From the NCBI GenBank assembly GCA_010015585.1, contig ML975174.1: 64,000 bases of DNA. The stretch is one strand, 5' to 3'. The stretch is from Eremomyces bilateralis CBS 781.70. Lineage: Eukaryota. Shown piece after piece: positions 7,240 through 61,164 of the stretch (its first letter is position 1; the number at the start of each line of letters is the position of its first letter). The notes below the pieces were generated by a model. It saw nothing but the letters and a program-made list of their open reading frames with translations. It was not told where the DNA came from and searched no databases. Position numbers and translations under genes: made by a program.

Positions 7240-7264
7240 GATTGAACCAGGAACTATTTAAATT

Positions 7265-7327: not shown

Positions 7328-7870
7328 TAAGGTGTGGGATGATTGATGTTCAGGGTGGACGATTGGACCGAATAGACTATTAGAGGAGAGTCCGCAGTTG
7401 GAGTTTGATATCAGATGTGAAACTGACTGCGACACTCCATTGAAGGACCGACAATGCCAAGACTCATCCCGGCTTCTCTCGCCTACAGTAACAACTCTAA
7501 GAAGCTTCCTCCTCCTCTACATCCCTCTCGAATTCACCACTCCTCTCTTTCGTCCATAGCTCTTCATGCTCTCGATCCGCTCTTGGACTGGTCTTTAATA
7601 TTTCCCACTTCTCCTTGATGGTCTTCTGCTTCATCAATTTCCATCGTCCTGTTCCATCGATTGTTTTCCAGCCCGCTCCTTCCCATCTTTGCTGACGTAC
7701 ACACCAACACTGCCCCGCTGGAGTCTCCAGGCTCCCCAGAGTGTCTCCAAACAAACCTCTCCAGATACGCTCTCCACCTTAAGCGTCGTTTCTACCGAAA
7801 TTGGACCTGTTCAATCATCCGTATTACGTTACTTCCTTCTTGGAGCGTTCCTGTTTGATCCGCCGTCGTA

Positions 7871-10800
7871 ATGACGTCCCCGCCGTTCAAGGTCAAGGCG
7901 GTGTACGAATACACTTCACCCCACGATGACGATCTGAATTTCAAAGACGGTCAGATCATCACCGTCACCGAAGAGGAGGATGCCGACTGGTATGTTGGCG
8001 AATACGCCGATGCTTCCGGAGAGCAGAAATCCGGCCTGTTTCCCAGAAACTTCGTCGAGAAATATGAACCCGCGCCACCTCCACGACCCAACCGAGCATC
8101 CAGACCCAAACCGACGGAACCGGTTCCTGAGAAGGCACCAGCACCCGAAGAGCCATCAGAGCCGCCGATCGTTCTGGCTACAAAACCGGAACCCGTCAAA
8201 GAAGAGCCGGTAGCAGCACCCCAAGAAATACCAGCCCCCGTTCCTCTCGCATCTCCTCAACGCGAGGAGCCTGAAATCAAATATGAACCCGCTCCTGCAC
8301 CAAAGCCGGTTCCTGCTGCCCCTACTCAGTCCGAGGCTCCAGCTCCACCTGTCGAAAAGAAACCTCCACCGGTAGCAGCCAAATCGAACGCCTTCAAAGA
8401 CCGCATCGCAGCTTTCAACAAAACTGCCGCTCCACCAATTGCCCCGTTCAAACCCGGCGGATCTTCCAGCACCACCTTTATCAAGAAGCCGTTTGTTGCT
8501 CCTCCACCAAGCCGAGACGCATATGTCCCGCCACCCCGTGACGCCCCAACACAAAAGTTGTACAAGAGAGACGAAGATCCTGAAATTGCGGAGCGACGGG
8601 CACAAGACCAAGAAATCGCGGAAAAGGCTGGCTTGGTTGGGGATGCTGCAAACGAGGGCGGCGAAGATGCTCCCAAGCCTCAGAGCCTGAAAGAGAGGAT
8701 TGCGTTGCTCCAGAAGCAACAAATGGAGCAGGCCGCCAAGAGAAGCGAAAGCACTCAGAAAGAGAAGCCTAAGCGGCCTCCCAAGAAGCGCGTTGAATCA
8801 CACGACAAGGATACACCGCAAGCCACCAGCGTGGAGCCGGAACCAACCGCCTCGGCCGATGCTCCCATGTCATCCGACGAACCTCATGAGCATGCCCATC
8901 AACCCGCCCTCACTCGGATGACATCAAAGACTTCAAAGCCGAGCGAACCGCGCGATCGGGAACCAGTTAGTGACGGAAATGACGCGGATCAGTCCGGCCT
9001 TGGTGACACTACAGAAGACGCGGGAGAAACCTCGACTGGCCTTGATGACGAAGAAGTGGAACCCAAAGCTCCAGGAAAGGTGCCGCAGCCTGCCGCAACC
9101 GCCCAGCAAGCAGATGTAGGAGATGAAGAGGATACAACGGAAGACGATATGGATGAGGAAGCTCAACGACAACTCGCGCTTCGTGAACGCATGGCGAAGT
9201 TGAGCGGCGGCATGGGCATGGCTGGCATGTTTGGTATGCCGGCCCCTGCCGGAGCACCCAAGAAGAAGAAACCGTCAGAAAAGATACTAGAGGAGGAGGC
9301 TGAGCCCGCACCCGCACCCTCGTCGGCACCTAGGGTTCCGATGATCCCCATTCCAGGAATGGGTGCTCCCCGAGCTCCAGAGGAGCCGTCTGAATCGAGT
9401 CCCGCGCATGACGAGGACGACGACGACGACGCAGAAACAATCGCTCAGGAAGAGCCGCCATCGCGTCCCTCCCTCGCCCAAGGTACGCTCGTCCCAATCC
9501 AGGCCATGAGTACATCGGATCCTAGGAGAAGTCACTCACATCGGTTGGCGGATCGGAGAAATTATATCGAGCGGAGGTTGTCCGCTCGACGCGCTCTTCT
9601 CCGTGATGCGGCTCAATCAACGATGTTGAACACTTTGAGTGGGTTTATGAGCTCGGGAACATTTCTTATCTATTCTTGCGATGTGACATGCTGACCTCGG
9701 ATAGATCGCGGTGCACCACCACCAGTCCCAACTCAAGAACGGCCGGCGCCACCACCGGTGCCGAGCGATCGCCCGAAGGCAGAGGGTATGTTAACCGAAA
9801 CTAGGTGCACACTCCAGTGGCTAACGATGTGTAGCTACGCCCATAGAGCCACCGCGATCGTTGATCCAATCCCCTAGTGCAGGCTCCGAGTCCGATGACG
9901 AGATGCCTCAAAGCTCGGGAGATAATAGTCTCCCTCTCCGTGGAGCACCCCCACCCATCCCGACGGCGAGCATACCTCCTATGCCGTCAAGGCCGCAGGG
10001 GCAGTCGACTCCAAAACGTACTTCCGTGCACAGTCCCCTTGCGATGTCTCCGACTTCACCGGGAGGGTCAGGACGAGTGCCAGTGTTCCCAATGGGCGGC
10101 ATGCCTAGTGCAACGGCATCTAGGCCACCACCACCTCCGCCTCCGGGAGCTCCTCCGAGCAGGCAAGGCACATCCGAGAGCCTGTCACGATCGATCGCCG
10201 GTGGAGATGGCGTGGAAGGGGAGAGTGAATACGAAGGCGACTATGACACTGACATTGCTTCTGGCGCTAAGCATAAGGATGCTCTCAAAGCACATATCCG
10301 AGAGCCAAGCATCGATGGCAGCACCGTAGCCGATGATAATTCCACGCGTGGGGCTCCTCCTCTTCCGCCTATTCATCGAGCTGTCCCCCCGCCGCCGCCT
10401 CAACAAGCACCCCCAAGGCGCTCCGTTGACGGGCCCAGGGCCCCGCCGCCCCCAGTTCCGCCGCCACGGGATACACTTGCCGAAGAGGAGGAGTATGACC
10501 CGTACAAGTACACGTCACCGACATCCCGACCGGTTCCTTCTCGGGCCGCCCCTCCTCCCGCGCCTGTCGGTCCGCCTCCTCCACCAGCTCCGCAAGCAAC
10601 TCCGCGTGAAGAGGACGACGAGGATGACCTGTATGGAGCACCCCCGCCTCGCAAGTCCGTAGACCGCCCTCCACCTCCACCTCCTCAATCACCTCCCGTC
10701 CACCAGCACCCGATACCACATCTGCCACAGGGCCACGCTCCGCCTCCCCCGGCAGCGGTGCCAGCCGCGCCCGGAAGGAGCTCGAGTCGAGCCGCACCAC

Positions 10801-11651
10801 GTCCATCACAAGATATCGAGCAGCCTCCTTCCCATTCCCGCAAGTCCACTGACGTGTCGCGTCAATCCCACGACCAGAGCTACATGGCCCGCGACGTCGA
10901 TCTGGACCGCGCCACGCTGTGGTACTCCCACCCGAACGGCCTCCCCCCCAGCCTGCAAACCCGCCGCGACGTCCTAATTGAACACGGCGAGCGCTCCACT
11001 GCCCAGCGAGGCGACAAGACCATCGCCTCCCGCGACATCTTCGTCCTCTACCCCGACTACAGCCAGACCACCATCTCCACCCGCTACAATGTCGCCCACG
11101 CCCCCGACTGCCGCCTCGACCAACGCCACGACCCGCCCCCGCCCCCACCCCGCCAAGACGCCCTCGAAGCCGCCCACGCCACCTTCGGCGCCAAGATCGC
11201 CGACGACGTCGCCCACAAAGCCAACGCCCTCATCGGCGACGGGACCCCCCTCGCACTCATCTACGAGCTCTTCCGACCCCATGCCACAGCGCTCCCGCCG
11301 ATCGGCGCGCGCTCGTTCGGCGTACCCATCTACACGAACCTCGCGAACTCGTCGGTCGCGCAGTCGGACGAGATCCGGCCGGGCGACATCATCACGTTCC
11401 GCAACGCGAAATTCCAAGGAAAGCATGGGGCGATGCACGCGAAGTACACGGCGGAGGTGGGGATGGGAGGGTTGCATGCGGCGGTGGTGATAGAGTGGGA
11501 TGGGACGAAGAAGAAGGTGCGCGGGTACGAGCAGGTGGCGGAGGGGAAGAAGGGGAAGGTTCGAGCGGAGAGTTGGCGGGTGGGGGATTTGCGGAGTGGG
11601 GAGGTGAAGGTGTGGAGGGTGGTGGGGAGGGATTGGGTGGGGTGGGAGTAG
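7871..11651 (+). CDS. BBC1: SH3-domain actin-patch protein, Bbc1/Mti1-like; join(7871..9482,9705..9785,9835..11651), ~1169 aa
   Basis: N-terminal SH3 (VKAVYEY..DDLNF..WY.GE..GLFPRNFV); FKDRIAAFNK, SLKERIALLQKQQ and LRERMAKLSGGMG motifs; Pro-rich middle; conserved C-terminal domain (DEIRPGDII...EWDGTKKKVR...LRSGEVKVWRVV). GT-AG introns 9483-9704 and 9786-9834 have branch sites and keep the frame. Confidence 0.85.
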
Positions 11652-33400: not shown

Positions 33401-33754
33401 ATATTGAGTTTTAATCAGTTAAGAAGAAGAACGAAGATGCATAATGCTTGGTAGAGCATTCGTATATGAATATGGATATAATTAATATAGACAGACCTCA
33501 AAACAACAGAACATTGGTCACTTTCAATATGGATAGTTGAAGACATCTCAAATGCCAACTGTAGAGATTTCCACTACCACAATCCCAATCTGCCTTTAAT
33601 ACCAATAGTAATGAAGCCTATTTGGCAGTATTGTACAATAGGAATCTCACCTTTTCAAAATGTAGGGGTGAACAATGGTTGAGACTCCATCTTGATATTG
33701 AATTGTGTGTGTAATAAACAACTGCAACTGCAGCTGCAAATAGCTGTAGCACTG

Positions 33755-33914
33755 TTATCTCAGCTTGGGCTCAGACGTTACCCAAGCCATGACCCTGGTT
33801 AAGCTAAACCGTAACCAGATTAAACCCATGTTTAGCGTAAATACTACTCACGTGATTGTAACTGTCTCGTGTAACGTCTGAGAAACTTCAGAGAATTTTC
33901 TGTGGAGTCGTACA
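33755..33914. repeat. Element 1 left terminal structure (outer TIR plus inner inverted block)
   Basis: Outer TTATCTCAG...; CTCAGACGTTAC (33770-33781) is perfectly inverted at 33871-33882 (GTAACGTCTGAG). Confidence 0.85.
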
Positions 33915-34126
33915 TGGTGATAATTGCTAGAAATAATGAGATTGTGAATAACATCATATGGAGAAGTTGAGTGGGCTCCAAAAGTTGATGCGATATAGAT
34001 AAAGGTTTGTTAAACCATCCTATGGCTTTTAAATCTCAAATTTCTAACTGTTAATTCTGTAACTAGCTTTTTAAAACTACTTGTTGCGTCATCTGTCGTA
34101 CAGGTTCACTCTCCAGGTCATCTTCC

Positions 34127-36934
34127 ATGCGACTGAAGCGCCGGCGAGGCCGCGCCCATCGATGTGAAACCGCCCCAAACAAGAATCCTGACTCTGCACA
34201 ATTACCTCCTATCGAGAAAACGATTGAAGAACGGATATTCATGATTGCAACGACACCAGAGAAAGAGTTATGTTCGGTACTGCAAGAGTTGGTTAAGGCC
34301 TGTCTGATACGAAAGAACATCATATACCAGCATGATCTTATCTTCCACGGTTTGCAGCGACTCCTGGGTGGTCGGCTCCCACGTATCAACCAGGTTCGGG
34401 CTCTTCGACGAGTTGTTTTTCGGCATGGGGATACTATTATCTCTGCGAAGACTGGTTTTGGGAAGAGCATCATCTTCCATGCTATCCCAATCTTTATTGG
34501 CAGAATTGTCATCCAGTTGATTCCTTTAAGCAAGCTTGGAGAGGAGCAGAAGAGGTCGATTGAACAGTTACCAGGGGCCAGGCCTTCCCTTGTTACAGCG
34601 GAGACTAAGCGAAGGAATCCGAACCTGTTAAAGGAGATTGCAGCTGGGATATATACCCATATCTTGATGGGTCCTGAGCAAGCAGTTAGCGATGAGTTTC
34701 GTGGTTTGCTGTTAAGCCCCGACGTAAAGAATAGGATTGGTGTGGTTGCAATTGACGAGCTCCATGTTATGGAGCAATGGAAGGAATTCCGGTTGGAATA
34801 TCTCAAAATCAGGGAATTACGACGGTACTTACGTGCTGATACCATCTGGTTTGGTTGTTCTGCCACTTTGAACAAGGCCACAGAACAAGCTGTTATCTAT
34901 TATGGTGGTTTCTACGAAGAGACACACCATGAACTGCCACTCAAGATCATCCGAGTCTCAATCGATCGACCTGATATCTCACTTAACATTTTGCCCATTA
35001 AGAGAGGAAAGAGCAAGGCTTACCAACGGCTATGGTTTCTAGTTGATCATGCATTAGAGCATCCAACTAGTAGGACGGAAGACGACCTCCAGCGAATCCC
35101 GAAAACGATTATCTTTGTAGATGGACTTCAATCGGTAGCGAATATCTCTGCATCCTTAGAGCGGCATCTCTTTGTTCAAGGGTTTGAACCAACCATGGTT
35201 CGGGATGCAATTGGTGTATATACATCGAATACTCCACGATACGATCAGGACTTGCTGTACGATAAGATCAGATCCCCATGCTCTTCTCTTAGAGTAGTTG
35301 TTGCAACTACTGCTCTTGGAATGGGTATGGATATTCCTGATATTATGGTGGTTGCTCAATGGGGACTTCCAATCGGCCATGATCTCGGTGATATTTGGCA
35401 GCGGGTTGGACGGGCTGTTCGAGTAAAGCAGGCAATCAATGGGATGGCTTTTATATTCCTGCCATACTATGCGTTCGACTCAATGGGACAGGATCCTGTT
35501 CAAATGCCTAGTTCGCGTAATAATCAGCCATTGTCTCAGAAGAAAAGGGGAAAGCGGAACACAGTCCGGTTACCGAATACCACCCATTCACCATCGCCAT
35601 TATCGCAAGGCGATGGAGCTGAGTCTGACTTCTCTGAACAGTCTGATAATACCGAAGCAGCCAGTCAAGAGAGCTCGAAATTAACTGTCCCAAAGTCTAA
35701 GAAGAGGGACAAGTCAGATGGTCCACCTCTATGGACTGTTGATGAACTTCAGCATAGGGCAACCCTCCCAATAACGATCCGTTCTCTTGCAAACGCGCCA
35801 TGTAGACGGCAGGTATTCCTTACGGAGTTCAATGAGGACCAATGCGAGCCAGATACTACCCCCATTCGAGCAGACAAGAAGGTCTGTTGTAATGGGAAGG
35901 AGTGTAATCTGGCATTGTTCCAGTTGCCACCAATGCCTGATACTTCCCTTAAGTCTACCAAACCTGGCCGAGAGACTAAGGCAGGTATTGCGCTGCATCT
36001 ATTGGTTATATGGTGTCTTGAACAGGTGGAATCGATCTTCCCACGAGCGCAGCAAATGATTCCAATCCCAGCTGGGGTGATCATTCCTCAAGAAGCGCAA
36101 TGGGCTATTGCTCGTATGTATACTTGTGTGAAGAACTCAACAACGATACCTATACCAGATCGGGAGGCATTGTTACCCCTCTTTGATATCGAAAACTGGG
36201 AATATCGGAACGTCCTCCTTGACGATTTGTTGGTATTCCTTGTCCAGATAGTTCCAGCCGTATACTCGAAGCATGCCGCGATACTAGAGGAACGAAAGTG
36301 CAAGAGGAACCTGAAGGCACTGGCCGGAAAGGTTACAGAGGCTGCTGCTCAAGATTTGGGGAGTAATCCTCAAGACTTGAGTATTATACCTAATCCCACT
36401 CTATCTAAAGAGGAAGAGGTTGCTCAATATGTCCACAGTCGTCAGTCGGCAGATGATAGGGATGGGCTCCGGGTTATCATGCATAACGAGCTACTTGCGC
36501 AGAAGCTTAATGAGTATCGGGAAACATTCAAACCCCGCCATTGGCCCTCGTTTTCATCACTGCCGGAGATATCGGAAGGGTCGCAGGAATTAGGAAGCTC
36601 GTTTGTCGTCGGAGGGGAGTCATCGTTCGTATCGCAATCTAGCGTTAAGTTAGATTCTGGTATAGATAATAAGACTACAATCCCCTCGGATATAAAAGCT
36701 CCTATACCTGTTAACATCCGGTCGCGCAGCCAAACGCCCAAACGAGCTACTCAAGATTCTTCTTCGGGTATGCGCAAGAGAAGTCGGACGCCGCTTAGGG
36801 AAGTATCTGGAAACCATGAGAAAGGACAGATCACTAGACAAGATAGGCCGAATACGCCTAAACGAGCTGGTCTTCGTACTCATGTACAGTTGACGCCAAA
36901 AGGGAGGGATCTATGGGGGAAGAGTGGTAAATAG
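34127..36934 (+). CDS. Transposon-encoded RecQ-like SF2 DExH helicase (935 aa)
   Basis: Motif I AKTGFGKS, Ia LIPL, Ib GPEQ, II AIDELH, III GCSAT, DRPDI, IV KTIIFV, V VATTALGMGMD, VI WQRVGRAVR; RecQ Zn-site-like CRR...CCNGKEC; uninterrupted ORF inside the TIRs. Confidence 0.9.
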   Translation: MRLKRRRGRAHRCETAPNKNPDSAQLPPIEKTIEERIFMIATTPEKELCSVLQELVKACLIRKNIIYQHDLIFHGLQRLLGGRLPRINQVRALRRVVFRHGDTIISAKTGFGKSIIFHAIPIFIGRIVIQLIPLSKLGEEQKRSIEQLPGARPSLVTAETKRRNPNLLKEIAAGIYTHILMGPEQAVSDEFRGLLLSPDVKNRIGVVAIDELHVMEQWKEFRLEYLKIRELRRYLRADTIWFGCSATLNKATEQAVIYYGGFYEETHHELPLKIIRVSIDRPDISLNILPIKRGKSKAYQRLWFLVDHALEHPTSRTEDDLQRIPKTIIFVDGLQSVANISASLERHLFVQGFEPTMVRDAIGVYTSNTPRYDQDLLYDKIRSPCSSLRVVVATTALGMGMDIPDIMVVAQWGLPIGHDLGDIWQRVGRAVRVKQAINGMAFIFLPYYAFDSMGQDPVQMPSSRNNQPLSQKKRGKRNTVRLPNTTHSPSPLSQGDGAESDFSEQSDNTEAASQESSKLTVPKSKKRDKSDGPPLWTVDELQHRATLPITIRSLANAPCRRQVFLTEFNEDQCEPDTTPIRADKKVCCNGKECNLALFQLPPMPDTSLKSTKPGRETKAGIALHLLVIWCLEQVESIFPRAQQMIPIPAGVIIPQEAQWAIARMYTCVKNSTTIPIPDREALLPLFDIENWEYRNVLLDDLLVFLVQIVPAVYSKHAAILEERKCKRNLKALAGKVTEAAAQDLGSNPQDLSIIPNPTLSKEEEVAQYVHSRQSADDRDGLRVIMHNELLAQKLNEYRETFKPRHWPSFSSLPEISEGSQELGSSFVVGGESSFVSQSSVKLDSGIDNKTTIPSDIKAPIPVNIRSRSQTPKRATQDSSSGMRKRSRTPLREVSGNHEKGQITRQDRPNTPKRAGLRTHVQLTPKGRDLWGKSGK

Positions 36935-37381
36935 AAGAACAAAGATTTGGAGGTGTTTTGGTTGGGAGAACTTCGGATAGCCCTTTTCAGACTAGTGTCC
37001 TTTTATTTCCAGATTTGTACCAACTTCAAAGGAAATGAAGTGGGTAGGAACCAATTGAATTATGATTGTATATACATCATCTTGTAGCTCTTAATAAGAG
37101 GATTCCAGCAATGTTATCATCTTTGAAAAACATTAAGGATTGGTAGAGATATTATAGTAAGACACACCTAAACCTGCTAGATACTAGGCTTTTATCTACA
37201 CATTGACCCCATTCCATACTCAATATCCCCCAGGTTGTGCAGCACGAGGCACCCTAGTCTCAACTATGAATTGGTTAATGAGCGACGGGCTCAGTAAACC
37301 AGTTCGAAACTAGGCCTTGGAGACGAATAGTTTCGATATAGAGGGCTTCGAGGGATATAGGTGAAGTGAGCGATAACGTAG

Positions 37382-40051
37382 TCAAAGAATATCATAATCC
37401 TCAACAAGCCCATCTTCACAAGCCTCAGTGTAGGTAATTGCTGGTGAAGTCTCAGAGTTATGAGGATTTAAATCCATCTCTTCGTCAAGGTAAGGATCAG
37501 CCTGGGGGATGATACTAGAGCGGACTGGTATCCGATTGTTGAAGGAATTGACCTTTTGTTCCAAGACCTCAGCACCAATCCGGAAGATATCAGGTGCGTC
37601 CCAACCAACAGCATCGCGAGGTTGGATAGTGAGCAAAGGACTGCGTAGATATAGTTGAAGGGCGCGACTGAAGATATCCCGTTGATCGGCTTTGGTTGTG
37701 TGTCGATCGCTTTGGGTAAACCCAAATGAGTTTTCCCATGCCCCACGAATCTTGGAGAAGACATTACTTAATAATGCGACTCTACCAAAGGTTTTGTCTG
37801 CATTATGTGTTGAATTCTTCAATAACTTCATATCAATCTTGTATGCGCAATTAACGTGTTCAAGGGCTAGGTCAATACCCTTGAACTGGCCTGGTTTGCC
37901 ATGTAAATTCACAAGACTGGATGAGAGTATTGCGTCGCGGAGAATCTTCTCTGAAACGCATTCAGATAATATCCAACGAAGATGGAGCATTTCATCACCA
38001 TACTTGTGCTGTCCAGTTGCGTGGAAGATAACTGCAAGTGGGTCGATTAAACGGTCAATCCAGCCGATGTCGCCATTCTTGACTGCTTTACGCAAAGAAA
38101 GGAAGATGCTGATCAACTGGACAAGTCGGCAGAGACTTCGAAATTCAAGTCCATATTGTGTCGTGTCCCATGCCTCTAGAGAGAATGCCAGTGTGCAGAC
38201 CTCTTTCATTGTAGAGATAAGTTCTTCTGGCTCCAGGTTCTGGATAATTAGATCCAGTTTCGAACTTGGACTGGAATCTTCAAGGAATGCCTTTTGGATA
38301 TGTCCTCGTCTCGTAAGAACATGATACCATAGCATCAAGACACGAGCATAAAATGATTGCTTGAGCAGGGGGTCAAACATGTAGAACTTTGGGGATTCTC
38401 GAGTATATCCTTTTCGATCCCAGTAGATGATATCCGATAGAAGCGTTGCATCTGATGGTAGTGAAGGCTCTTTATCCGACGGTAGTGAAGGCTCCGTATC
38501 AAAATGGATACGGACGATCGTTAGGATGAGATTCATAAGGACATGGAACAGTCCAGATGGACCTAACATCCATCTCCGTCGGTCAAAAGGTAGAATAGCA
38601 TTCTTCTGGGCCTCCTTTAGAGTACGGATATGTTGGGCTGTTTTCTGGTCTCCAAATACCAACCAGAGACGGTTTGTGAAGTCTTCGCTTGGTGGCTGGG
38701 ATTGGAAACCCAACTGTCGGATCCAAATATCTTCATGAACTCCGTAGGTTCCTTGGATTGTTCCTTCATCAAAAGGGGCAGCCCGAAGATGATGGATGTT
38801 TGTTACATTCCCACCCGCATGTAAACGGTTGATCTCTGGATAAGCAGGGACAGCAGACGGCTGTGATTGGAAAACCAAGTCAATACTTGTAGAATGAACG
38901 TGTTGTAGGGCCTCGTAGACTAAGTGAATGTCTATACTCTGCTTTTTCTCATCATACTTTAAGCCATCGGCTTTACAGATGTCTTTAAAAGAGAGAAGTT
39001 GGGAAGGATCGAAACTTGATTGGAATAAACCTTCATCAGGCAAATATGGGTTCTCAACCAACAGGCATGTTGTCAGATTCCGCATAATATGGGTTGAACC
39101 AATTGTCTGCTCGCGCACAGTATCTTTGAAGTTGAAGTTATCATAAACAAGGACTGTCTTTGGCTTTTTGGCCAGCATTGGGAGGCGGTTCTAATTAAAA
39201 GTTAGAAGAAAAGATCTAACTTATGAAATAAACCAACCTACCTTCGCCTTGAGTGCCATACCTGAAACCTCCTCATTAATACTTTGGTATGTCTCAGTGA
39301 GCCCAAGACCAGCAGCTGTATCCACGACCCGCCGCTTTGTCCCACTAGAGATCATATATAACCCCAACTGCTTAGCGTATACATTTGATGTGTTCCGCTT
39401 ACGACTCCGGCATGCTACTGCAGTCATCGTGTACATTTGCCCAATTGTCCCTTTTGAAAGAGTCTCCCTTTGATCTGGTTCTTGACTGCGACAGTTTCGA
39501 AGAACTAGATCTAAACAGCGGTACCATTCCGGTGCCCCAGTCTTGATAACTTTTCGGACATCTTCAAGGTCGATATCCCATTCGTGGGCGGTATCAGGAT
39601 CGAAGGTATCAAAGTATTTGTATTCGGCCAAGCCATCAAGTTCTTTGAGGAGAGGTTGCCAATTATGGCGGCTTGAAGGGTGATGCCCAACAACCTCACG
39701 GATTTCCTCCTCTTCTAAGAGTTCACGGAATATTCCAACCCTTGTAGACCTCCCTAAGGTACCATGGTGCTTATCCGATAGTAACCAGGCGCGGAGGAAT
39801 TCTTTAAACGTGAACCGCTGCTCTCGCCACAGATACAATGTTTCGCGCAATTTATCAAATGGTTGAAGTTTTTTTTTTCCTGCAACACGCCGAATCTGCC
39901 GATATCTAGTAGGGGATCGTCTTAGGGAAGGGCGTTTTGGTCGGGGAGTCGAACCTGAGGGTGAAGACGAGGTAGAGGGCGAGGATGATAAATATGTCTC
40001 ATCTGGCGGTATCGAAGATAACTCGCTGGAGATGAAGGGTGGGGTCGACAT
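37382..40051 (-). CDS. Putative DDE transposase (DUF6589/Academ-like); complement(join(37382..39190,39242..40051)), ~872 aa
   Basis: A 51-nt GT-AG intron at 39241-39191 (GTAGGT donor, CTAAC branch, TAG acceptor) joins the 276-aa and 598-aa ORFs in frame. Conserved motifs VYDNF, FGDQKT, GLFHVLMN, KNGDIG, GQHKYGDEML, LVNLHG and IDLALEHVN. Confidence 0.82.
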
Positions 40052-40228
40052 GGTGAAAGGGAAGATGATACGTTCTTGGACTGTGGAGTGGTTGGATTGG
40101 TCCTGAAACTTGATGAAATGTAGAAGTCAAGGGGTAGAATCAATTTGTGAAAACAGATTAGCGATAAACATTATGTATCAAGCACACTTAGCGATAGGAG
40201 TTCTCTCACCTATTTCATGATATGAAGC

Positions 40229-40412
40229 TGTACACCTCCACACAAATTATGCAGACGTCTCTCAGACGGCAGTTGTACCAACTGCCTTGATGGAATATGA
40301 TTGGTCAATATTTAGTGGCACATGCTAAAGAAGAGGCTGGGCTTTAATGGGTATAGCGGATCCCCATAATGGCCAGGGGGTACCATTGCCGCCTGAGTCC
40401 CAACTGAGATAA
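40229..40412. repeat. Element 1 right terminal structure
   Basis: CTCAGACGGCAG (40261-40272) is inverted at 40386-40397 (TTGCCGCCTGAG, 10/12). 8-bp stem GGCAGTTG-tac-CAACTGCC at 40268-40286. Terminal CTGAGATAA. Confidence 0.8.
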
Positions 40413-40668
40413 TAGCACTGCAGTAGCATACAATATGGTATTAAGGCATCAAGGCGACGAGCTGCATCATCGGCGAACAAGCTCCAAAGTTAAGGGACAT
40501 CCACAGGGAGCTCACAACCAAAGAGGAGGATTAATTCTTCACGCCCACTGTTTCTTGTTCATGCATTGATGCAAACAGTTACCGATAAAGACTTGCTAGA
40601 ACAATTCATAGCCGTGAGCCCATCATTATTGCACCGGAACTTGTAATATAGCCTCCACATCGCCCAGC

Positions 40669-42717
40669 ATGGACATCGTCCAGGCCGTCTCAGGCTACAT
40701 CTCCAAGATGATGTCGTCCACGGACAGCAGCGGATCTGGATCTGCGAAGATGAAGATCCTGTTGCTTGACAGCGAGACTGTAGGTTTGTTGCTCTATACC
40801 CTCGAGCCTCCATGCTCATAGCTAATTCCCGCTTAGGTTGGTATACTCTCGACCGCCACGACACAATCCGCTCTCTTGAACCATGAAGTGTACCTTACAG
40901 AGTACGTGGAGACCAGCCAGGCGCTTGAGATAGGACAATGCTTACGGAAATCATAGTCGCCTCGACAACCAGGCGCGAGAGAAGATGCGCCATTTACGCT
41001 GTCTATGCTTCCTTCGTCCTTCCCCCGAGTCAATACAGCTCCTCATTGATGAACTACGAGAGCCAAAGTACGGAGAGTACAACGTTTGTATGTGCATGTT
41101 ATACACCGGAAGAGAACAAAGGCTAAATTTCCTAGACTTCAGTAACATCATCAAGAAGTCCTCGTTGGAGCGACTGGCCGAAGCGGACGACCATGAGGTG
41201 ATTCGCGCGGTTCAAGAATACTTTGCCGACTACCTTGTCATCAACCCCGACCTGTACTCTCTGGACCTGTGGTACCCTCAAAATCGGATATGGGGAACCA
41301 GTCCCGAGCTATGGAACCCGGACGCCTTGCAACGATCGACCGAAGGGATTCTAGCCGTTCTACTGTCGTTGAAGAAGAAGCCGCTGATACGATACTCGAA
41401 AACGAGTATGCTTGCGAAGAAGCTAGCTACAGAAGTTCGGTATCATATGACACAAGAGGACCAGCTGTTCGACTTCAGGAGACCGGACACCCCTCCAATA
41501 TTGCTGATATTGGATCGAAGGGATGACCCAGTGACTCCATTACTCACTCAATGGACATATCAAGCCATGGTGCACGAGATGCTAGGTATCCGGAACGGCC
41601 GTGTGGATCTAAGCCATGTTCCAGAGGTCCGCCCGGAGTTCAAGGTTAGGCCCCAAACAGGGTATATTCGGATGGATTTCTGACCGCTCGAATAGGAGAT
41701 TGTCCTCTCTCAGGATCAGGACCCCTTCTTCAAGAAGAACATGTTCCTCAACTTCGGAGATCTCGGAGAAAACGCTAAGGGCTACGTCGAGCAATTTGCA
41801 TCGAAAAGTTCGACAAACCTCAAGCTGGAATCCATAGACGACATGAAGCGATTCGTCGAAGATTATCCGGAATTCCGAAAACTCTCGAGCAATGTGACGA
41901 AACATGTCACGTTGGTTGGAGAGCTTAGTCGAAGAGTCGGGGGAGAAAACCTCCTCGATGTTAGCGAACTGGAACAGAGCCTGGCATGCAACGACAACCA
42001 CAACACCGATTTGAAGGTATTTTAGCAGACCTTGGCCTAATATGGCGTTTATTCTAACCTAATTAGACATTACAACGCCTCATTCAAGATCCCGCCGTCC
42101 CCGCATCCAACAAGCTTCGCCTAACCGCGATATACGCCCTCCGCTACTCCAAACACCCATCCAACTCCACCCCGATGCTCCTCGACCTCCTCAGCGTGGC
42201 TGGAAACCTCTCCCGCTTCCGCATTGCCCTCATCTCCAAGCTCCTCACCTACCACAGTTCCCTCGCCCCCGTCCCCGCATCCGCCGGCGTTTCCGGCCTT
42301 CCCGACCTCTTCCAATCTACCAACCTCTTCTCCAGCGCCCGTGAGCGCTTCCGCGGCCTGAAAGGCACCGAGAACGTCTACACCCAGCATTCACCCCGCC
42401 TGGAGAGTACACTGCAGGAGCTGATCCGCGGCCGGCTCAAAGAACAGCTGTATCCCTTCGTCGACGGCGGTGGCTCGACCAAGGACAAACCCCAGGACAT
42501 CGTGGTCTTCATGGTCGGCGGCGTCACGTATGAGGAGGCGAAGATGGTCGCGCAGATCAACGCGAGCTCGCCCGGCGTGCGGATCGTGTTGGGCGGTACC
42601 AGCGTGCACAACAGTGAGAGTTTCCTGGACGAGGTGGAGGATGCGGTGGATTCGTGGCCGGAGGCGGCGAGAGGGGGCACCGCGAATGAAAGGCTGAGGA
42701 GAGAAGTCGGAAGGTGA
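40669..42717 (+). CDS. VPS45: Vps45, Sec1/Munc18-family vacuolar sorting protein (multi-exon)
   Basis: MDIVQAVSGYISKM..MKILLLDSET, HLRCLCFLRPS, VQEYFADY, LILDRRDDPVTPLLTQWTYQAMVHE, NVTKHVTLVGELS, ENVYTQHSP, VFMVGGVTYEE. Several short GT-AG introns (first 40780-40836). Confidence 0.95.
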
Positions 42718-54061: not shown

Positions 54062-54508
54062 TGGGGGAATAGATAGGTAGGTTGGGTTGAGCGTGGTGTT
54101 GGGAGAAGGCCGTCTAATAATTCGGGAGAGTTTTGAGTCTGGAGTCTCCTCCCTTGGTGCAGATGGTCGTTGGTAAAAAGCGCTGGTCGTGTATACTATT
54201 ATTTTTACGAGGAGGGGTTCAGCGAGGCCGTAGGTCCGTTTCGTGCAGTCTAGTCGACAATGCAAAAGCGTGTTCCGCCAAATGAAGTCAGGATAGAGAA
54301 TCGGAACGTTGTGAACACGTCGATGTTTGTGAGGAAAGTGAAACTGGCAGACTAGGAGCTTGAATCTGAGTTGAGTATGACCTTATCACGTCTTACATGT
54401 CCCTCGTATTGCCATCCTTAGTGTCTAGTGATCTCTCAGCTCTAGCCTCTAGGCCACTAGTCGGCAGTACAATGGACTGTGGCGTCTGAATTGTGTGAGG
54501 CTGTGAAG

Positions 54509-54623
54509 TTACCTCAGCAAGCTCAGGCTATTTGTGGTCGTGCCAAGGCACCGGAGTGGGACTATACCTAATCGGTAAGTCACATGCACTCCTCGAACAA
54601 ATAGCCTGAGGATTCTGTCAATG
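54509..54623. repeat. Element 2 left bipartite TIR
   Basis: Outer 25-bp block and inner 25-bp block, 65 bp apart; CTCAGGCTATTT and AAATAGCCTGAG are inverted within the end. Confidence 0.93.
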
Positions 54624-54770
54624 GGTTTTGGGTGTGTGCGGAGAGCTTTCATACCAAATGGAAGACCATCTTTAACTCCATTTTCATCCACAACCACACT
54701 ATGCTCCGTCAATTAAATATAACCATTCGATTCCCCTGCTTTTTCTCCATAATTGATTGAATTTTGGGTC

Positions 54771-57498
54771 ATGTCGGCCCGAAACCAGCATCGTCAGAGC
54801 GCGCGGTTGAACTCGCCCACTTTGCTACCTGCTCCAAGTTCTCAGCATATTGCTGCGTCAAACACATCTAATGCACCTCGTCAGAAAGCAAGAGGTTCTC
54901 AAAGACGCAGTAAGGCGCAGAGAGTAAACGAGATATGCCAATTCATGCGGAAAAAAAACATTACACTACGAGAATTTATCCATGTCTACGCGACGACTCA
55001 AGGGTCTGATGGTTATGGGGAGCGCCCTGCCACGCGTGCCAAACGACTCGCCGAGGCCGTCTACGGTCAGGCAGAGGTCTTAGATGCACTGCGAGAACAT
55101 CCCGCGTCTGGTGCGGCAGGAATTGTCACTATAAAGGACCTGAGGAAGGAAATGAAGGAACTGGAAGAAGCCGGAGATATGTTTAGTGCCTACCAAGTCG
55201 ACCGTGTCCAAGAGAAGACTTCACCTGCCGGCGTAGGGAGGGAGAAACAGTCAGAGGGTCAGAAGGTCGAGGACTACGAGCGCATACTGGGCAACATGCA
55301 GTTTGGGCAGATGTACGAGCAAGTTAAAACTCGTGCTCCTCTTCTATGTGGATTGCTCAATGGCCTTATGGCGCCCAAGACAGAGAGAAAAGATCGACCG
55401 CCACGGGATCCTGTCAAGTTCAACCACAGGATTGCGATAATCACGTCGATTCTCTGCTATTCTCGGGCATCGGAAGGGAGTAACAAGTTTCCCCGCGTAT
55501 TTGGCGCCTTTCTGCACTCAAATGGCGTGAAACGACGTATCCTCGATCTTCTTCACCAATTTGGGGTTTGTGAAGGCTACAAGGGAGTCCACAGGCATCT
55601 CGAAACTGTGGCAGAACAAGCAAAGGCATCCTCACCGCCTCTCAGTATAGACGTCCACTGATTGCAATTAGGGAACGGTTCGTCGATATGGTCAGCAACT
55701 GGATGCCTGTGTTGTATATGACAATTTCGACTATCGAGAAGGTATTAAGCACCAGCTTATTTCAAATCACGCAGAAATGCGCTCTGTGACAACGGGAAAG
55801 GTTTTCAGAGGCTCTGATATCCCCTCTGGTGGTCTAAAGCAGTCAATGCTACACCGCGAGGTTCCACTTACAATAGAGGATCTTTTATATTCTCCTGGTG
55901 CAGCAGTATATGACGAGACTGCCGCAAAGATTGATACCTACTTTATAGCGGAGGCAATTCGATCAGCATATCCAATATCGGTCGAATCTATCTTCTCTAC
56001 GTCCGACACACCTTACCCCGCTATGCCAGCAGTCGAGTTACTCGAGATTCGAAAGACAGATAGCAAGACGCTCGGTCCGATTCTCTTTAACGAAGGTACT
56101 CTAGATGGTTCCTACGAGGTTATAGAGAGCATCTACAAGTACCAATTCCGGCTAGATAATAAAGAATTCGACAACCGTCTGTTCTTGGCATTTGGCGATC
56201 AAAAAACCTCTTCACTTATCCGATCTATGCAGGCTGAGCAAGTAGACGCGTCTATGGCGTATGATAGAAAAGACTGGCTGATAGGAGTCGCTGCTCTCTT
56301 TCACCTGCGTATGAATTTTCTATGGCTTATGCAAAAGACACATTACGGAAACATGGAGCAACAGGACGCTTCAACTCTCTATCACAACATCAACTTCTGG
56401 GGACGAAAGAATATTCCAGCAGACCGTGCAGCATTTCAGGTTCTGGAAGAGCTGGTACTTCACAGTTTCGACGCTCGGGTTGTTGGACTACTCTATACTC
56501 GCCTCGAGCAGTGCGGCATCGATACCTCGGATCAAGATGAGGTTGACAAGGCAATTCGGAACATGAATACTAGAGGCTTTATGGACCTAGTGGAGGATAT
56601 TCGCAGATCCGCATTTGAGCCGCAAGCCTGGCGACCATCTAAGGAGCAGTATACCAACGACACAGTCGATGAGGAGTTCCTCAGTCACGCTCGATATCTT
56701 CAACAAATGGTTGTATACAAGACCTTGAAGTACGGTATCAAAAACGGAGATATAGGACTCATTGATCGAGTTATTGGTGTCTGTTGCTTTTACTTCGAGG
56801 GGACTGGACAATCAAACTACGCATTCGAAATGCTCTATCTAAAGCGGCTCACTAGCACCAAAGCTTGTGACAAGGAGCTTCGGCGCGCAATACTCTCGAA
56901 TAGCCTCGTTAATCCGCACGGCCGTCGGGACACCTGGCAAGAAGTCGATCGTAGCCTTGAATATCTAAACCTAGAGCTGAAAAGAGAGCTTTGGGCCCGT
57001 CGAACGTCGACTTTCGGATTAGATGCCCTGTTCAAGACTACCTCATTGACGGCAGAATATACTGTTTGTCTACGCAGGGCAGTTGAGGATGCATTCGCCC
57101 GGAAGGACAACTCCACACATTCCGTGCCCTCCCCGAAAGATGATATTCATACATTGGCCTTTGAGCTAGCATACGACTCGATTAAGCTCTATGACGGCGG
57201 CAGGAAGGCAAGACATCAAGCGCCAGACATACATACGGTCGGGCTCGAAAGAGTAGCAACTCAAAAATTGGAAGTGTTCAATGCAAAAGTTATAAGAGAT
57301 AAAGATCGGATAGTTGTACCACCTTATGAGAGGAGAGGAGCTACGGCTGATCTAGATCCCAATAGCGACACGATGGCGATATTGGTATGTGCATGCTCAT
57401 ATAGTTTCTGGTCTTGTGCTAACAGACGTCGCCAGCCCTTGGCAGACAGAGATATAACCCATGAATGGGGTTTACCTTCGGATGTCGAGTTAGACTAA
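54771..57498 (+). CDS. Putative DDE transposase (DUF6589/Academ-like); exon 1 from 54771, intron ~55626-55671, probable second intron 57385-57435
   Basis: Exon 1 (GAFLHSNGVKRRILDLLHQFGVCEGY) is homologous to element 1 exon 1 (GLYMISSGTKRRVVDTAAGLGLTETY). After the TAG acceptor at 55671 the frame reads VVYDNFD, FGDQKT, ALFHLRMN, KNGDIG, GQSNYAFEML, LVNPHG, VDRSLEYLN. Confidence 0.82.
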
Positions 57499-57573
57499 CC
57501 TATCTATAATACCCACTCGCTGTAGTCGTAGCGGCTATTATTCCTTTTCTTACTGCGAGGACTTCGCCTTGCG

Positions 57574-60054
57574 TTAAATCGAGTCTAAAACGCCGAGTAC
57601 GACCCGTTTCGTCGCTACTCCCTTCCCTCGGCTCAATGCGGGACGTTTCGAGGCCTGATTACTATTAATTATTCCTGGCACCTCATTCTCACCATCTTCG
57701 AGAACACCTGATATAGTAGAAGAATAGTCTACGTCTGTAGATATCATCGACCTACCTATAGATGTGAATGACGAGTTCACTGATACTATAGGCATTGATA
57801 GAGTAGGTAGATAAGAAGAACTCGAAGCTGGTACCTCTCTTGCCTGGGCAATGATTCGCTCTAGCGAGGAAGCGTACTCTTCTCGTTCATGCGCGAATAA
57901 TACTCTTCGTTCCTGATCAGGAGTTATCGGAGTCTCTGCTTCGATAGACAATCTTCTCTTCCGACTTCGTTGTTGAGATACTTGCCGTTCGGCGGTGGGA
58001 TGAGCTTGTCTTTCGAATGGTGCTCTTCGTATTAGAACTTGAGCTGCAGCTGTGGTTCCTGGCGTGCAGCCTCCGGGCCAGTTCCTCACGACATAGGACT
58101 TGATTTTATTAAACTCTTCGAACAGCTCATGGGAATGATCTTTCATCCAAGCCGATTTCATAAACTTCTCCAACTCAGCAGCCGAGCGGATGTTCGTATA
58201 CTCTCTGGATATTGATATCCACTCTTCCTTCTGCGCGAGTAACCGTACTGAGAGCTCTGGCTTTACCATCCGATGTGCCGAATTAACAACGTTGTCTCCC
58301 CAGAGGGTCAGGCGGTCATAAAATGCGCGGGATGCCGTTCCAGCCTGGGGCTTGCGAAGACTAGCAGTGGTATCCCATGGGAAAGGCACCGCCCGCGTCA
58401 GATCAGGGTTACAGACGTTACAGCACTCGTGCGGTTGAGGAGCCGGTAACCTAGATGCAGGGTCCGATAGACTCTCTTGTAGCCAATCCATTAGGATTCG
58501 GCGTAGGCATGCGGATCGATTAACAAGATTGAATAGCGCCGGACAGTCATTATATAGGTCTGTTCGGCGTTCTCTCCCCGTTTTGCGTCGGTGCTGCCCT
58601 CCTGGTATATCATACTTAATAGCGTCTACGGCAACATCCGATTCATCATCTGGGATATCACCGCCCACCCCTGGATCGGTGGAGTACGACTGAGCTAACT
58701 GGCTCGTGTCGGAAGGCTGCCTTAAACACGACAGCATCTGAGTTCTGGATTGCAGCGCCGGTCTTGTCGATGAGATCCTGTCACCTATCGCCCAACTTTC
58801 TACCAAGAATATAGCCTCTCCTTTAATGCCAGTCATCCTAGCTGCACGGCCAAAGCGTTGGATAAGGACGCATAAGAGTCGTTCTAGAGGGAAGCCATAC
58901 TGGACAACTCGTATGACATCCGAGAGATCTACCCCCGTTCCCAATGATTCTGTGGCCACCATGATTCGGATCTTAGAGTCCGGTTTAGAAAACTGGTCGT
59001 ATATAGCATTCTTGTCGTTCGGAGTAGTATGTGAATGGTAGACCTGGATAATCTGCTTGCAGTCGTGGGCGTCCACGGACCCAGCTAACAGTTTCTGTAG
59101 CCAATCTCGCAGACATTCCGCACATTTTTGGATATCCCGTCGGGAGTCTATAAAGATTACAGTCTTCGGAATTCGCTCCGGCGTTGGCGAGCCGTTTGTG
59201 ATGGCGTCCTGCAGAACAAAGAAGAGGCTTATGAATCTCTTCGTTGTCCGTGGTTGGATCATCTCGACGATTAACTTAATCTCTGGTCTATCGACGGATG
59301 ATCGGAAGAACTCGCAGCTGGCCTGGAATCCTGTCATTTTTGTCGCAGTGTCTAACGTCGTCCGGTCCAGGGTGGCAGAGCAGCCAAACCAAGGGACACC
59401 TCCCCCTAGCCTTCGGCGTAGAAGAGAGAGTTGTGCATACTGTGGACGGATACCACTTCCCCAGAGGGCCACTAAATGGAGCTCATCTATAGCCACGATA
59501 CAGACACGCTTCTTAAAAGTCGGGCTGCTTGCTATCGATCGAAACCAACCGGCGGCGATCTCTGGGCCCATGATAAGATGAGTATACACTCCCATTTCAA
59601 TCTCTTGGGCTAATTCTTGAGTCTTGTCCGTCCTGCCATTGATAAACACGGATCTCGCGCCCGGAAGCCTTTGGATTTTGATACACTGCTCCTGTCCAAT
59701 TCGATCCAAAGGGATGATAATGAGGCCGATGCCATCGCGGCAAAACAACGGCGCTGCCTGGAATATGACACTTTTGCCAAAAGATGTCTTGGCTGCAAGA
59801 ATAAGGTCCTCCTTCTTGAATACTAAATGCCATATAGCATCTACCTGCTTCTGACGAGGCTCGAATGGGTAGAGATGGCAGTCCAGGCCTGCCCTGATGA
59901 TGCCCTTCTGCACTTCCTCGGGCGCGTCTCTTGCAATTTCGACTAACCGCTGTATAGCCAGCATACTAGTGGTGCTATAGGCATCGTGGACGAGATCTCT
60001 GGCGATGTCCATGGTCTCTCGTCGCCGTTTTCGAACGCTCGCCTTGCTTCGCAT
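57574..60054 (-). CDS. Transposon-encoded RecQ-like SF2 DExH helicase (~826 aa from first ATG)
   Basis: AKTSFGKS, IIPL, GPE, AIDELH, GCSAT, DRPEI, KTVIFI, VATESLGTGVD, IQRFGRAAR, CLRR...ECCNVC. The motifs are collinear with the element 1 helicase. Confidence 0.9.
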   Translation of the reverse strand: MRSKASVRKRRRETMDIARDLVHDAYSTTSMLAIQRLVEIARDAPEEVQKGIIRAGLDCHLYPFEPRQKQVDAIWHLVFKKEDLILAAKTSFGKSVIFQAAPLFCRDGIGLIIIPLDRIGQEQCIKIQRLPGARSVFINGRTDKTQELAQEIEMGVYTHLIMGPEIAAGWFRSIASSPTFKKRVCIVAIDELHLVALWGSGIRPQYAQLSLLRRRLGGGVPWFGCSATLDRTTLDTATKMTGFQASCEFFRSSVDRPEIKLIVEMIQPRTTKRFISLFFVLQDAITNGSPTPERIPKTVIFIDSRRDIQKCAECLRDWLQKLLAGSVDAHDCKQIIQVYHSHTTPNDKNAIYDQFSKPDSKIRIMVATESLGTGVDLSDVIRVVQYGFPLERLLCVLIQRFGRAARMTGIKGEAIFLVESWAIGDRISSTRPALQSRTQMLSCLRQPSDTSQLAQSYSTDPGVGGDIPDDESDVAVDAIKYDIPGGQHRRKTGRERRTDLYNDCPALFNLVNRSACLRRILMDWLQESLSDPASRLPAPQPHECCNVCNPDLTRAVPFPWDTTASLRKPQAGTASRAFYDRLTLWGDNVVNSAHRMVKPELSVRLLAQKEEWISISREYTNIRSAAELEKFMKSAWMKDHSHELFEEFNKIKSYVVRNWPGGCTPGTTAAAQVLIRRAPFERQAHPTAERQVSQQRSRKRRLSIEAETPITPDQERRVLFAHEREEYASSLERIIAQAREVPASSSSYLPTLSMPIVSVNSSFTSIGRSMISTDVDYSSTISGVLEDGENEVPGIINSNQASKRPALSRGKGVATKRVVLGVLDSI

Positions 60055-60416
60055 GGGAAATATGGACACAAAATGTGTTCAATAATAGATATTTGTGTGA
60101 ATACCGACCGAGAAAGGCGTTATATGACATCCAATGGGTGTTTTCCAGGCTCATTCGACCGTAAGCTCCGGAACGATGGCTGGATGGTGATTTCGGTGTG
60201 GTCTAGTTCATCACATATTAGCGTTTTTCACCCGACACAAGCATGGACATGTAAAAAAAAATCAATTACGAGATAGAGCATACTTTAATACACAATCGAT
60301 CAGATTTTGGAGTACATACGACGTGTTTTGATGTGGTTATTAATGGATCGTGATTTTGTCAAATCCGCAGAGATACATACAAACCACATACAAAATTTAT
60401 GCAGAGCAGTGCGCGT

Positions 60417-60524
60417 CATTGACAGAATCCTCAGGCTATTTACCAGAGGAGTAGTTAAAGTAACGTGACCTTTTACAAAAAAGGTTAGACTCCCCTGAGA
60501 AATAGCCTGAGCTTGCTGAGGTAA
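60417..60524. repeat. Element 2 right bipartite TIR
   Basis: Inner block 60417-60441 and outer block 60500-60524, 58 bp apart. Confidence 0.93.
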
Positions 60525-61164
60525 CTGTGAAGCAGGATAGATGCACGTGACCACAGCACGTGAGTCAATGATAATATATGTCACGTGCTGTTACGGACAA
60601 ACATTTATCCGTCCCGTAGCGTTCAGACTGCGCAGCAGAGAACGCAACAACTTGAGTTGCTGCTTAGAGAGACTGAGAGACTGAGGACTGTGAGAGACTG
60701 ACACCACCAACCAACATCTGAACCATCCTTCCAGTCTGTTGTCCATCGTGCAACGCCCGCAGCCATCAATTCCATCCCCGTTTCTCCCTCCCTCACCCCC
60801 ATACACGTCCTTTTTCACGCGTTGATCTCCCCATTCCTTTCCTTAGAGCCCATCGCCCCGTCCCCCCAATTTCCCTCCCACCCTCGTTCCCGCTTCGACC
60901 ATCGCGACTTTCCCCCAACTTGCACGCAGTACCACCCCAACGCCGCATTCCATCTCCGCTCTCTCCCCCGATCATTCCCTATTGCGGAGTATGTCATTCT
61001 GAGCTGCTGGAATTCACTCTCCCTCACCGCGCCAAGACCTCGCGACCCATTTGCCACTGCGACCGCTCTTGCGCATTCTCACCCGTCCTCCGCATACGGT
61101 TGTGGAGTCGATAACGGGGACCACGTGCTTGGGGCATTCACCGCACTGGGCCTGAACGACCATC

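Follow-up and report, generated by a model that had tools for sequence, protein, structure and literature searches.

A helicase-encoding DNA transposon of probable Academ type with an 8-bp target-site duplication in Eremomyces bilateralis

Two convergent genes, one encoding a RecQ-like helicase and the other a protein with the Pfam domain DUF6589, lie between exact copies of an 8-bp word in contig ML975174.1 of Eremomyces bilateralis CBS 781.70 (NCBI GenBank assembly GCA_010015585.1). The locus raises the question of whether these are host genes or the genes of a mobile element and, in the latter case, to which kind of element they belong. It was studied within a stretch of 64,000 nucleotides of this contig, which is referred to as the window and to which all positions refer unless another locus is named. 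The unit between the two copies of the 8-bp word, element 1 (positions 33755-40412), is a mobile, multi-copy transposon and not a host gene pair. With a probability of roughly 0.85, we place it in the Academ superfamily, as an autonomous cut-and-paste transposon of the helicase-encoding, AcademH-like type.

Ends, copies and transcripts of element 1

A first-pass annotation of this DNA, made from the sequence by itself, had described a complete DNA transposon with terminal inverted repeats (TIRs) and an exact 8-bp target-site duplication (TSD) that directly abuts the termini and cannot be extended to 9 or 10 bp. The duplication was indeed found, as TAGCACTG at positions 33747-33754 on the left and as an exact copy at positions 40413-40420 on the right, and both copies abut the termini, which begin with TTATCTCAG from position 33755 and end in CTGAGATAA (positions 40404-40412). 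It stays at 8 bp, with mismatching neighbours at both sides (g before and T after the left copy; A before and c after the right copy). For a pair of positions picked at random in the window, the chance of an identical 8-mer is 1.75e-5. The left TIR (33755-33777, plus strand) and the right TIR (40389-40412, minus strand) are perfect over the first 9 nt (33755-33763 on the left), and from there an imperfect match takes in a CTCAG(A/G)C box (CTCAGAC on the left) and extends to about 21-23 bp, the two arms reading TTATCTCAG-CTTGGGCTCAGACG and TTATCTCAG-TTGGGACTCAGGCG. The TIR box, CTCAGACG, recurs as an inverted copy 73 nt deeper in the element, which gives a subterminal inverted repeat (33770-33882), a putative transposase-binding site. 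No further copy of element 1 and no repeat of at least 40 bp were found in the window, and a 14-nt TIR pattern matched the two ends only.

Evidence for additional copies came from two public DNA sequencing runs of one sample, X1 and X2, whose contigs were aligned to an 8.2-kb stretch including the flanks. Summed contig depth was 255 in X1 and 158 in X2 over both flanks, and 1292-11443 and 634-3250, respectively, within element 1; in both runs the element was covered roughly ten times as deeply as its flanks, although summed contig depth is not the same as copy number. This contrast between the element and its flanks indicates that element 1 belongs to a repeat family. The 1030 contig pieces of X1 that aligned to the stretch included 475 that were at least 99% alike, 307 at 95-99%, 215 at 90-95% and 33 at lower values. 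In both runs, the single-copy contigs of the flanks end at position 33783 and resume at 40384 or 40399, which places the breaks inward of the termini by the length of one k-mer. Four contigs of X2 align from position 33755 inward, and their sequences before this position are mutually unlike (agreement 0.58). Joints from 34575 to 40371, from 34778 to 36026 and from 36979 to 40082 were also present in the DNA contigs, and these represent internal-deletion derivatives. One deleted form of about 860 bp has kept both ends and is a candidate non-autonomous element. Furthermore, named paralogous proteins are encoded on other contigs (248 kb and 1.3 Mb) of an ascomycete genome, the transposase being 94% and the helicase 88% identical. 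The ends, the TSD, the repetition and the deletion forms all support the complete DNA transposon that had been proposed.

None of the listed runs is recorded as RNA; a third run, X3, was called RNA only on the basis of a program's guess and of its own GT..AG joints, and the copies from which it derives may be any that are at least 88% alike. A joint from 39190 to 39242, seen only in this run, removes exactly the 51 nt predicted to be the transposase intron, with ends that read CT..AC (GT..AG on the minus strand); the same run also contains a GT..AG intron (40779 to 40837) in the neighbouring Sec1/VPS45-like gene. As the family is multi-copy, has given rise to deletion derivatives, and is both transcribed and correctly spliced, it is probably active or has recently been so.

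Run X3, and no other run, also has CT..AC joints within the open reading frame (ORF) of the helicase, at positions 34279-34342 and 36637-36708. These point to minus-strand splicing in antisense to the helicase, and suggest readthrough of transposase transcripts into the gene of the helicase, which is convergent. RNA-like contigs of the Sec1/VPS45-like neighbour begin by position 40548 (40548-40837), and element 1 therefore lies only about 130 bp upstream of the transcribed region of this gene.

The two encoded proteins

The Pfam check that had been proposed for both proteins was carried out, and it returned DUF6589 for one of them (exon 2, E 2.5e-65) and DEAD (1.7e-12) together with Helicase_C (2.4e-9) for the other. 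The DUF6589 protein, which we refer to as the transposase, is encoded on the minus strand in two exons. Exon 1 (39242-40051; 270 codons) specifies an N-terminal region without a Pfam or NCBIfam match that presumably binds DNA, the intron (39191-39241) consists of 51 nt with GT..AG ends (GTAGGT...CTAAC...TAG), and exon 2 (37382-39190; 602 codons) corresponds to Pfam DUF6589 and to the predicted RNase H-fold DDE core; it likewise had no match in the NCBIfam scan. The gene, which is convergent to that of the helicase, thus encodes 270 + 602 = 872 amino acids.

The first-pass annotation had described this product as an approximately 872-residue, two-exon protein with YDN, GDQ and DxxLExxN motifs, and both the gene structure and the motifs held. 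Among 30 homologues of the exon-2 protein, YDNFNF is the consensus, the D of GDQ (D181 in exon-2 numbering, as are all residues of this protein given here) as well as D440 and E444 of DLALEHVN are invariant, and N447 is conserved in at least 90%. D17, D181 and E444 form a putative catalytic triad.

An AlphaFold (AF2) model of the transposase, built from a profile of these 30 homologues (profile A1), had a predicted local distance difference test score (pLDDT) of 83.1 and a predicted template-modelling score (pTM) of 0.83. In this model, D17 ends the first strand, D181 follows the fourth strand, and D440 and E444 lie in a helix that comes after a large insertion. When the model was compared with 48,161 chains using VIA-align, the closest structures were those of the P element transposase (Z 9.8, 288 residues aligned) and Hermes (Z 9.5, 282 aligned). 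Retroviral integrase cores followed with Z values of 8-9.3 and 127-143 aligned residues that were spread across residues 2-490 of the model, while Tn5 gave a Z of 8.6 and RAG1 5.5-5.8. This pattern is that of an RNase H-fold DDE core in two parts, and the DUF6589 protein is modelled as an RNase H-fold DDE transposase, with a large alpha-helical domain that would interrupt the core ahead of its last catalytic residue. The earlier proposal that this protein is a transposase is borne out by the DDE-type fold of the model as well as by the Academ profile motifs considered below.

The helicase gene (34127-36934, plus strand) encodes a RecQ-like helicase of superfamily 2 (SF2) with 935 amino acids, and no intron is needed. 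This agrees with the 935-residue RecQ-like helicase of the first-pass annotation: the ORF was confirmed, and the matches in PDB, by sequence and by fold, belong to the RecQ family. By sequence, these were 37 of 37 (WRN, RECQ4, RecQ, RECQ5, RECQ1 and BLM). A model obtained from 30 homologues had a pLDDT of 72.9, with high values through residues 30-460 and 530-730, and all matches listed by Foldseek for this model, down to an E value of 4e-18, were again of the RecQ family (BLM, WRN, RecQ, RECQ5 and RECQ1). The residues of Walker A, the DExH box and motifs V and VI are invariant or almost invariant, as are those of a cysteine cluster (C559, C587 and C593 invariant; C588 in at least 90%). In RecQ helicases, the two RecA-like lobes, with their DExH box, are followed by a Zn-binding module and RQC. 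At the same time, the protein scored 89.6 bits against NCBIfam TIGR00614 (recQ_fam), under the cut-off of 219.8, and the RQC, HRDC and RecQ_Zn_bind domains had no Pfam match in it. The helicase of element 1 is therefore RecQ-like in sequence and in its modelled fold, and not a canonical RecQ protein.

It had also been anticipated that databases would carry such proteins under the names of host genes. This was found to be so: relatives are named "hypothetical protein / DUF6589" on the one hand and "superfamily II DNA helicase RecQ" or "P-loop NTP hydrolase" on the other, and relatives of the helicase are also named "ATP-dependent DNA helicase" in public sources.

Relatives, length of the duplication and insertion sites

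The window contains a second, divergent member, element 2, which extends from position 54509 to 60524 (54501-60532 with its TSDs) and consists of a DUF6589 gene and a convergent gene for a RecQ-like helicase. Its TSD, CTGTGAAG at positions 54501-54508 and 60525-60532, is exact over 8 bp and not extendable, and its TIR, TTACCTCAGCAAGCTCAGGCTATTT at positions 54509-54533 and 60500-60524, is perfect over 25 bp. Both its ends have the same layout of subterminal inverted boxes as described above for element 1. On the plus strand, the reading frame of DUF6589 exon 1 is open from position 54753 and ends at 55625, followed by a putative intron (55626-55671; 46 nt, GC-AG, frame-compatible and in the same position as in element 1) and by exon 2 (55672-57498). 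The helicase is encoded on the minus strand (57574-60078). The proteins of the two elements are 31% and 30% identical.

Relatives are numerous outside the window. A word index contains 39 homologues of the exon-2 protein, each of them with PF20231. At E <= 0.001, profile A1 matched 3145 cluster representatives, of which 1651 reached E <= 1e-10 and 465 reached E <= 1e-30. In the protein atlas, the DUF6589 clusters come most often from Mollusca, Basidiomycota and Mucoromycota. When metagenome contigs were scanned, 34 loci encoding a relative were obtained, and those having the same gene pair and terminal motif encode proteins that are only 30-45% identical. A helicase match was present in 9 of the 34 loci, in a convergent and downstream position in eight of these (L001, L002, L005, L006, L007, L009, L011 and L013). 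As the helicase and the transposase have been co-inherited across relatives that are only 30% identical, we argue that the helicase is needed for the life cycle of the element. Exon 1 is conserved in 16 of the 34 loci, and in eight (L001, L002, L003, L007, L012, L016, L022 and L025) the tblastn matches of exon 1 and exon 2 are about 50-75 bp apart. The position of the transposase intron is thus conserved in element 2 and in metagenome relatives, and the recurrence of the exon split in eight loci indicates that this position is old.

The termini are conserved as well. Exon 2 is preceded by 1150 bp or more in fifteen metagenome loci, and in eight of them a terminus with at most one mismatch from TTATCTCAG is present at the expected place, usually followed by nnnnCTCAGAC. 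A TTATCTCAG-like terminus at the far end, beyond the start of the helicase, was found in four of the six loci having the helicase N-terminus. The sequences of L001 and L013 agree at 100% as far as ...CTGAGATAA and part directly after it, which fixes the terminus independently of the window. The left end of L001 was not found, its homology to L002 beginning about 60 bp inside the expected terminus. In three loci, the transposase and helicase genes are 3.0-6.8 kb apart (L005, 3340-6364; L006, 2439-5539; L011, 3532-10374), as compared to 0.45 kb in the window, and the extra spacing could represent extra cargo or nested insertions. A scan of viral contigs gave 63 pattern matches, none of them encoding a relative, and a weak search for long relatives fused to XPG or other domains scored none among 4745 candidates of 1645-4695 amino acids.

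An exact 8-bp TSD is present in both complete elements of the window (2/2). Since these represent two families that are only about 31% identical, a duplication of 8 bp looks like a property of the lineage to which elements 1 and 2 belong. PMC10045372 gives TSDs of 9 or 10 bp for AcademH and of 3 or 4 bp for AcademX, the same lengths that the first-pass annotation had stated. Might the family normally make duplications of 9-10 bp, as AcademH does, the 8-bp cases being minority events or longer duplications that were eroded by mutation? Only two complete insertions with clean TSDs are at hand, and within AcademH the length is said in the same source to vary by 1 bp (9 or 10). However, in both elements, exact 8-mers abut conserved termini and are bordered by mismatches on both sides, and registers of 9 or 10 bp give offset, non-matching words with no near match. 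L002, the only metagenome locus with both ends, also fits the 8-bp register best, with flank agreement of 5/8 at 8 bp versus 1/9 at 9 bp and 4/10 at 10 bp. We therefore consider erosion or minority events unlikely, and retain the notion of a lineage that makes duplications of 8 bp. TSDs of 8 bp are also made by hAT and P elements; by analogy, the 8-bp stagger might be set by the geometry of the transposase, in line with the TSD of these elements and with their being the nearest folds.

From the ends, TSDs, copies, splicing, folds and motifs that were observed, we infer the following chemistry, binding sites and role of the helicase. The transposase would bind the conserved termini, that is, TTATCTCAG and the CTCAGAC box that recurs in inverted orientation about 60-110 bp further in, would excise element 1 by a DDE cut-and-paste reaction, and would join the ends to the target with an 8-bp stagger, the repair of which would generate the 8-bp duplication. 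The RecQ-like helicase might assist in the unwinding or processing of donor and target DNA, or in gap repair.

The sites of insertion have a feature of their own. In 1847 flank bases next to 17 element ends, the hexamer CACGTG occurs nine times, whereas 0.25 occurrences would be expected at a rate of 30 per 225,058 bases. Mostly in the form of RTCACGTG, which we take to be a Cbf1-type E-box, it is found in 5 of the 17 flanks: the right flank of element 2 (positions 60544, 60557 and 60582), the flanks of L002, the right flank of L007 and the left flank of L025. The nearest site in each of these flanks is 19-35 bp from the element end. Of the nine CACGTG sites of the window, three are no more than 60 bp away from the right end of element 2, and none lies within 120 bp outside either end of element 1. 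A preference for certain targets or a bias towards promoters may underlie the enrichment; although the number of ends is small and insertion into promoters could explain part of it, the enrichment is a testable lead towards targeted integration. A bolder proposal, which we regard as doubtful, is that of a separate helicase-carrying branch of Academ that has an 8-bp stagger like hAT and P elements and is targeted to promoters, about 20-35 bp from RTCACGTG. If this were true, the transposase or the helicase would be tethered to a bound basic helix-loop-helix (bHLH) factor or to its nucleosome-free region.

Three further observations concern these surroundings. One CACGTG lies inside element 1, at position 33849, about 95 bp in from the left end. 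In L002 (1-139) and L025 (2757-2876), the DNA that immediately flanks the left terminus, CACGTG included, is tandemly duplicated. In the window, the approximately 9.6 kb between positions 24445 and 34062 have no stop-to-stop frame of at least 200 amino acids, with a GC content of 0.40-0.54.

Academ assignment and comparison with known systems

The published profile of the Academ catalytic core, RNase_H_Academ, is a hidden Markov model (HMM) with 465 positions that was made from 44 sequences (Muszewska et al. 2017, PMC5751038), and in 2017 this core was stated to match no Pfam domain (PMC5751038). We compared it with the transposase of element 1 by motifs and spacing over 107 of the 465 positions, using parts of the profile that were chosen by hand and without a formal HMM score. 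Four blocks correspond: f-D-N-w-D-i at HMM positions 2-7 (D3 and N4 with p ~0.9; N ranks second at position 6) to Y-D-N-F-N-F, v-v-l-t-g-d-q at 186-192 to W-L-V-F-G-D-Q, e-W-l-v-p at 213-217 to R-W-M-L-G-P, and D-e-a-l-E at 450-454 (D and E with p ~0.9) to D-L-A-L-E. The motifs follow the same order in the two, and the near-invariant profile positions, within the 107 of 465 compared, are all matched. The spacing from the second D to the E is 263 in both, and that from the first to the second D is 188 in the HMM versus 164 in element 1. Matching transposase motifs in combination with a RecQ-like helicase lead us to read element 1 as AcademH-like. In fungi, Academ elements are low-copy in most taxa and most abundant in Pucciniomycotina (PMC5751038), and AcademH has been reported in Basidiomycota, Ascomycota and Mucoromycota (PMC10799480, citing Kojima 2020). 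The range of DUF6589 (Basidiomycota, Mucoromycota and Mollusca) fits that of Academ and AcademH in fungi and animals.

In addition to the limits given above for contig depth, for run X3 and for the profile comparison, several points weigh against this assignment. The duplications described here have a length, 8 bp, that differs from the 9-10 bp reported for AcademH (PMC10045372), and L002 has no clean TSD. The GDQ positions of the Academ HMM are only moderately conserved (p ~0.2-0.4). A Foldseek search of PDB with the transposase model found nothing at E <= 0.001, the best relevant match being Hermes with a probability of 0.60, and a search of PDB by sequence gave 0 matches at E <= 1. Among the metagenome loci, L018 has a helicase-like segment upstream of the DUF6589 gene and on the same strand (126-1178 and 3163-4926), a layout that may represent two adjacent elements, and L028 and L034 have no helicase match despite at least 3 kb of downstream sequence. 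Seven of the 15 loci with upstream room, mostly the most divergent ones, lack a TTATCTCAG-like left terminus, and the right-end terminus was not found in L006 and L011, the end of L011 being predicted beyond the part of the contig that was examined. Finally, no empty site was seen; run X4, which bears the same species label, has no contigs here, flanks included, and is uninformative.

Some of these points would suit a different classification, in which element 1 is a helicase-carrying DDE transposon but DUF6589 represents a superfamily of its own, or one closer to hAT and P elements, and the likeness to Academ is superficial. The 8-bp TSD is the value of hAT and P elements and not the published value of Academ, the nearest solved folds are those of the P element transposase and Hermes, and the Academ match lacks a formal score. 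Nevertheless, such a classification appears quite improbable in view of the four collinear motif blocks, with a near-invariant D-N and D-x-x-x-E and the identical spacing of 263, and of the distribution of DUF6589 clusters (Basidiomycota, Mucoromycota, Mollusca), which suits the reported range of Academ and AcademH; moreover, there is no hAT dimerisation, BED or THAP domain in the Pfam results. That the locus is immobile and domesticated, its former transposon genes now serving the host, for example in RecQ-type repair, is scarcely plausible, even though both ORFs are intact and transcribed and AcademH-type helicase domains are frequent in fungal fusions of host and transposable-element sequences (PMC10799480), because the TIRs and the TSD are intact, depth is in about ten-fold excess with many pieces at least 99% alike and with deletion derivatives, paralogues exist on other contigs, and a second family with perfect 25-bp TIRs is present in the same window.

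The assignment of element 1 to the AcademH-like type has several implications. It would provide a function for a widespread "unknown" Pfam family, with DUF6589 as the catalytic core of Academ-type transposases. This link was not found in the literature searched, in which DUF6589 is named by a single paper, as a speculated virulence or epigenetic factor, and PF20231, DUF6589 and AcademH are all absent from the supplements of PMC10799480. Furthermore, helicase-carrying Academ elements would not be tied to TSDs of 9-10 bp, and the 8-bp TSD bears on the idea that an accessory enzyme sets the TSD length (PMC10045372). If DUF6589 is a transposase, then such genes, together with their "RecQ helicase" neighbours, should be counted as belonging to transposons and masked when fungal genomes are annotated. 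Being compact, with two intact genes and apparent activity, the element would also offer a test case for the role of a RecQ-like helicase in DDE transposition.

How does element 1 compare with known systems? Elements of the hAT (Hermes) and P types provide the nearest solved folds, in which the RNase H core is interrupted by a large helical insertion, and they have an 8-bp TSD in common with it. In contrast, they have no detectable sequence similarity to its transposase and their terminal sequences differ; BED, THAP and Dimer_Tnp_hAT had no Pfam match in the element 1 proteins at E <= 0.1 and, to our knowledge, hAT and P elements carry no helicase.

Kolobok elements use a TTAA target and have a 4-bp TSD, while Helitrons encode an HUH Rep protein fused to a Pif1-type helicase and have neither TIRs nor TSDs. 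KolobokH and Helitron, which are helicase-carrying transposons of fungi (PMC10799480), resemble element 1 in having a helicase gene within a DNA transposon. However, the TSDs of the elements described here are TAGCACTG and CTGTGAAG, and a TTAA or 4-bp TSD was not seen, which sets them apart from Kolobok. They differ from Helitron in that the nuclease of element 1 is, as modelled, a DDE enzyme and its helicase is RecQ-like. AcademX, with its fused XPG nuclease, differs in lacking a helicase and in having a TSD of 3-4 bp (PMC10045372), whereas element 1 has no XPG match in Pfam and a TSD of 8 bp. By motif comparison, the two share the same transposase superfamily.

AcademH is reportedly a helicase-encoding lineage of the Academ superfamily, said to have been described by Kojima in 2020 (Mob DNA 11:15). 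Element 1 resembles it in being a two-gene DNA transposon with TIRs, in having a DDE transposase that matches the Academ profile motifs along with a separate RecQ-related SF2 helicase with DEAD and Helicase_C domains, and in a low to moderate copy number in fungi, Ascomycota included. It differs in the TSD, which is 8 bp in elements 1 and 2 as compared to 9 or 10 bp in AcademH. With the transposase motifs and the helicase in agreement, and the reported length of the TSD at variance, element 1 most probably belongs with AcademH. The distinct ascomycete lineage inferred in the first-pass annotation is at most a possibility. The AcademH kind of element, including its occurrence in Ascomycota, is already known (PMC10799480), and what element 1 adds to it is an 8-bp TSD in the company of a helicase, the tie between DUF6589 and Academ, and apparent activity.

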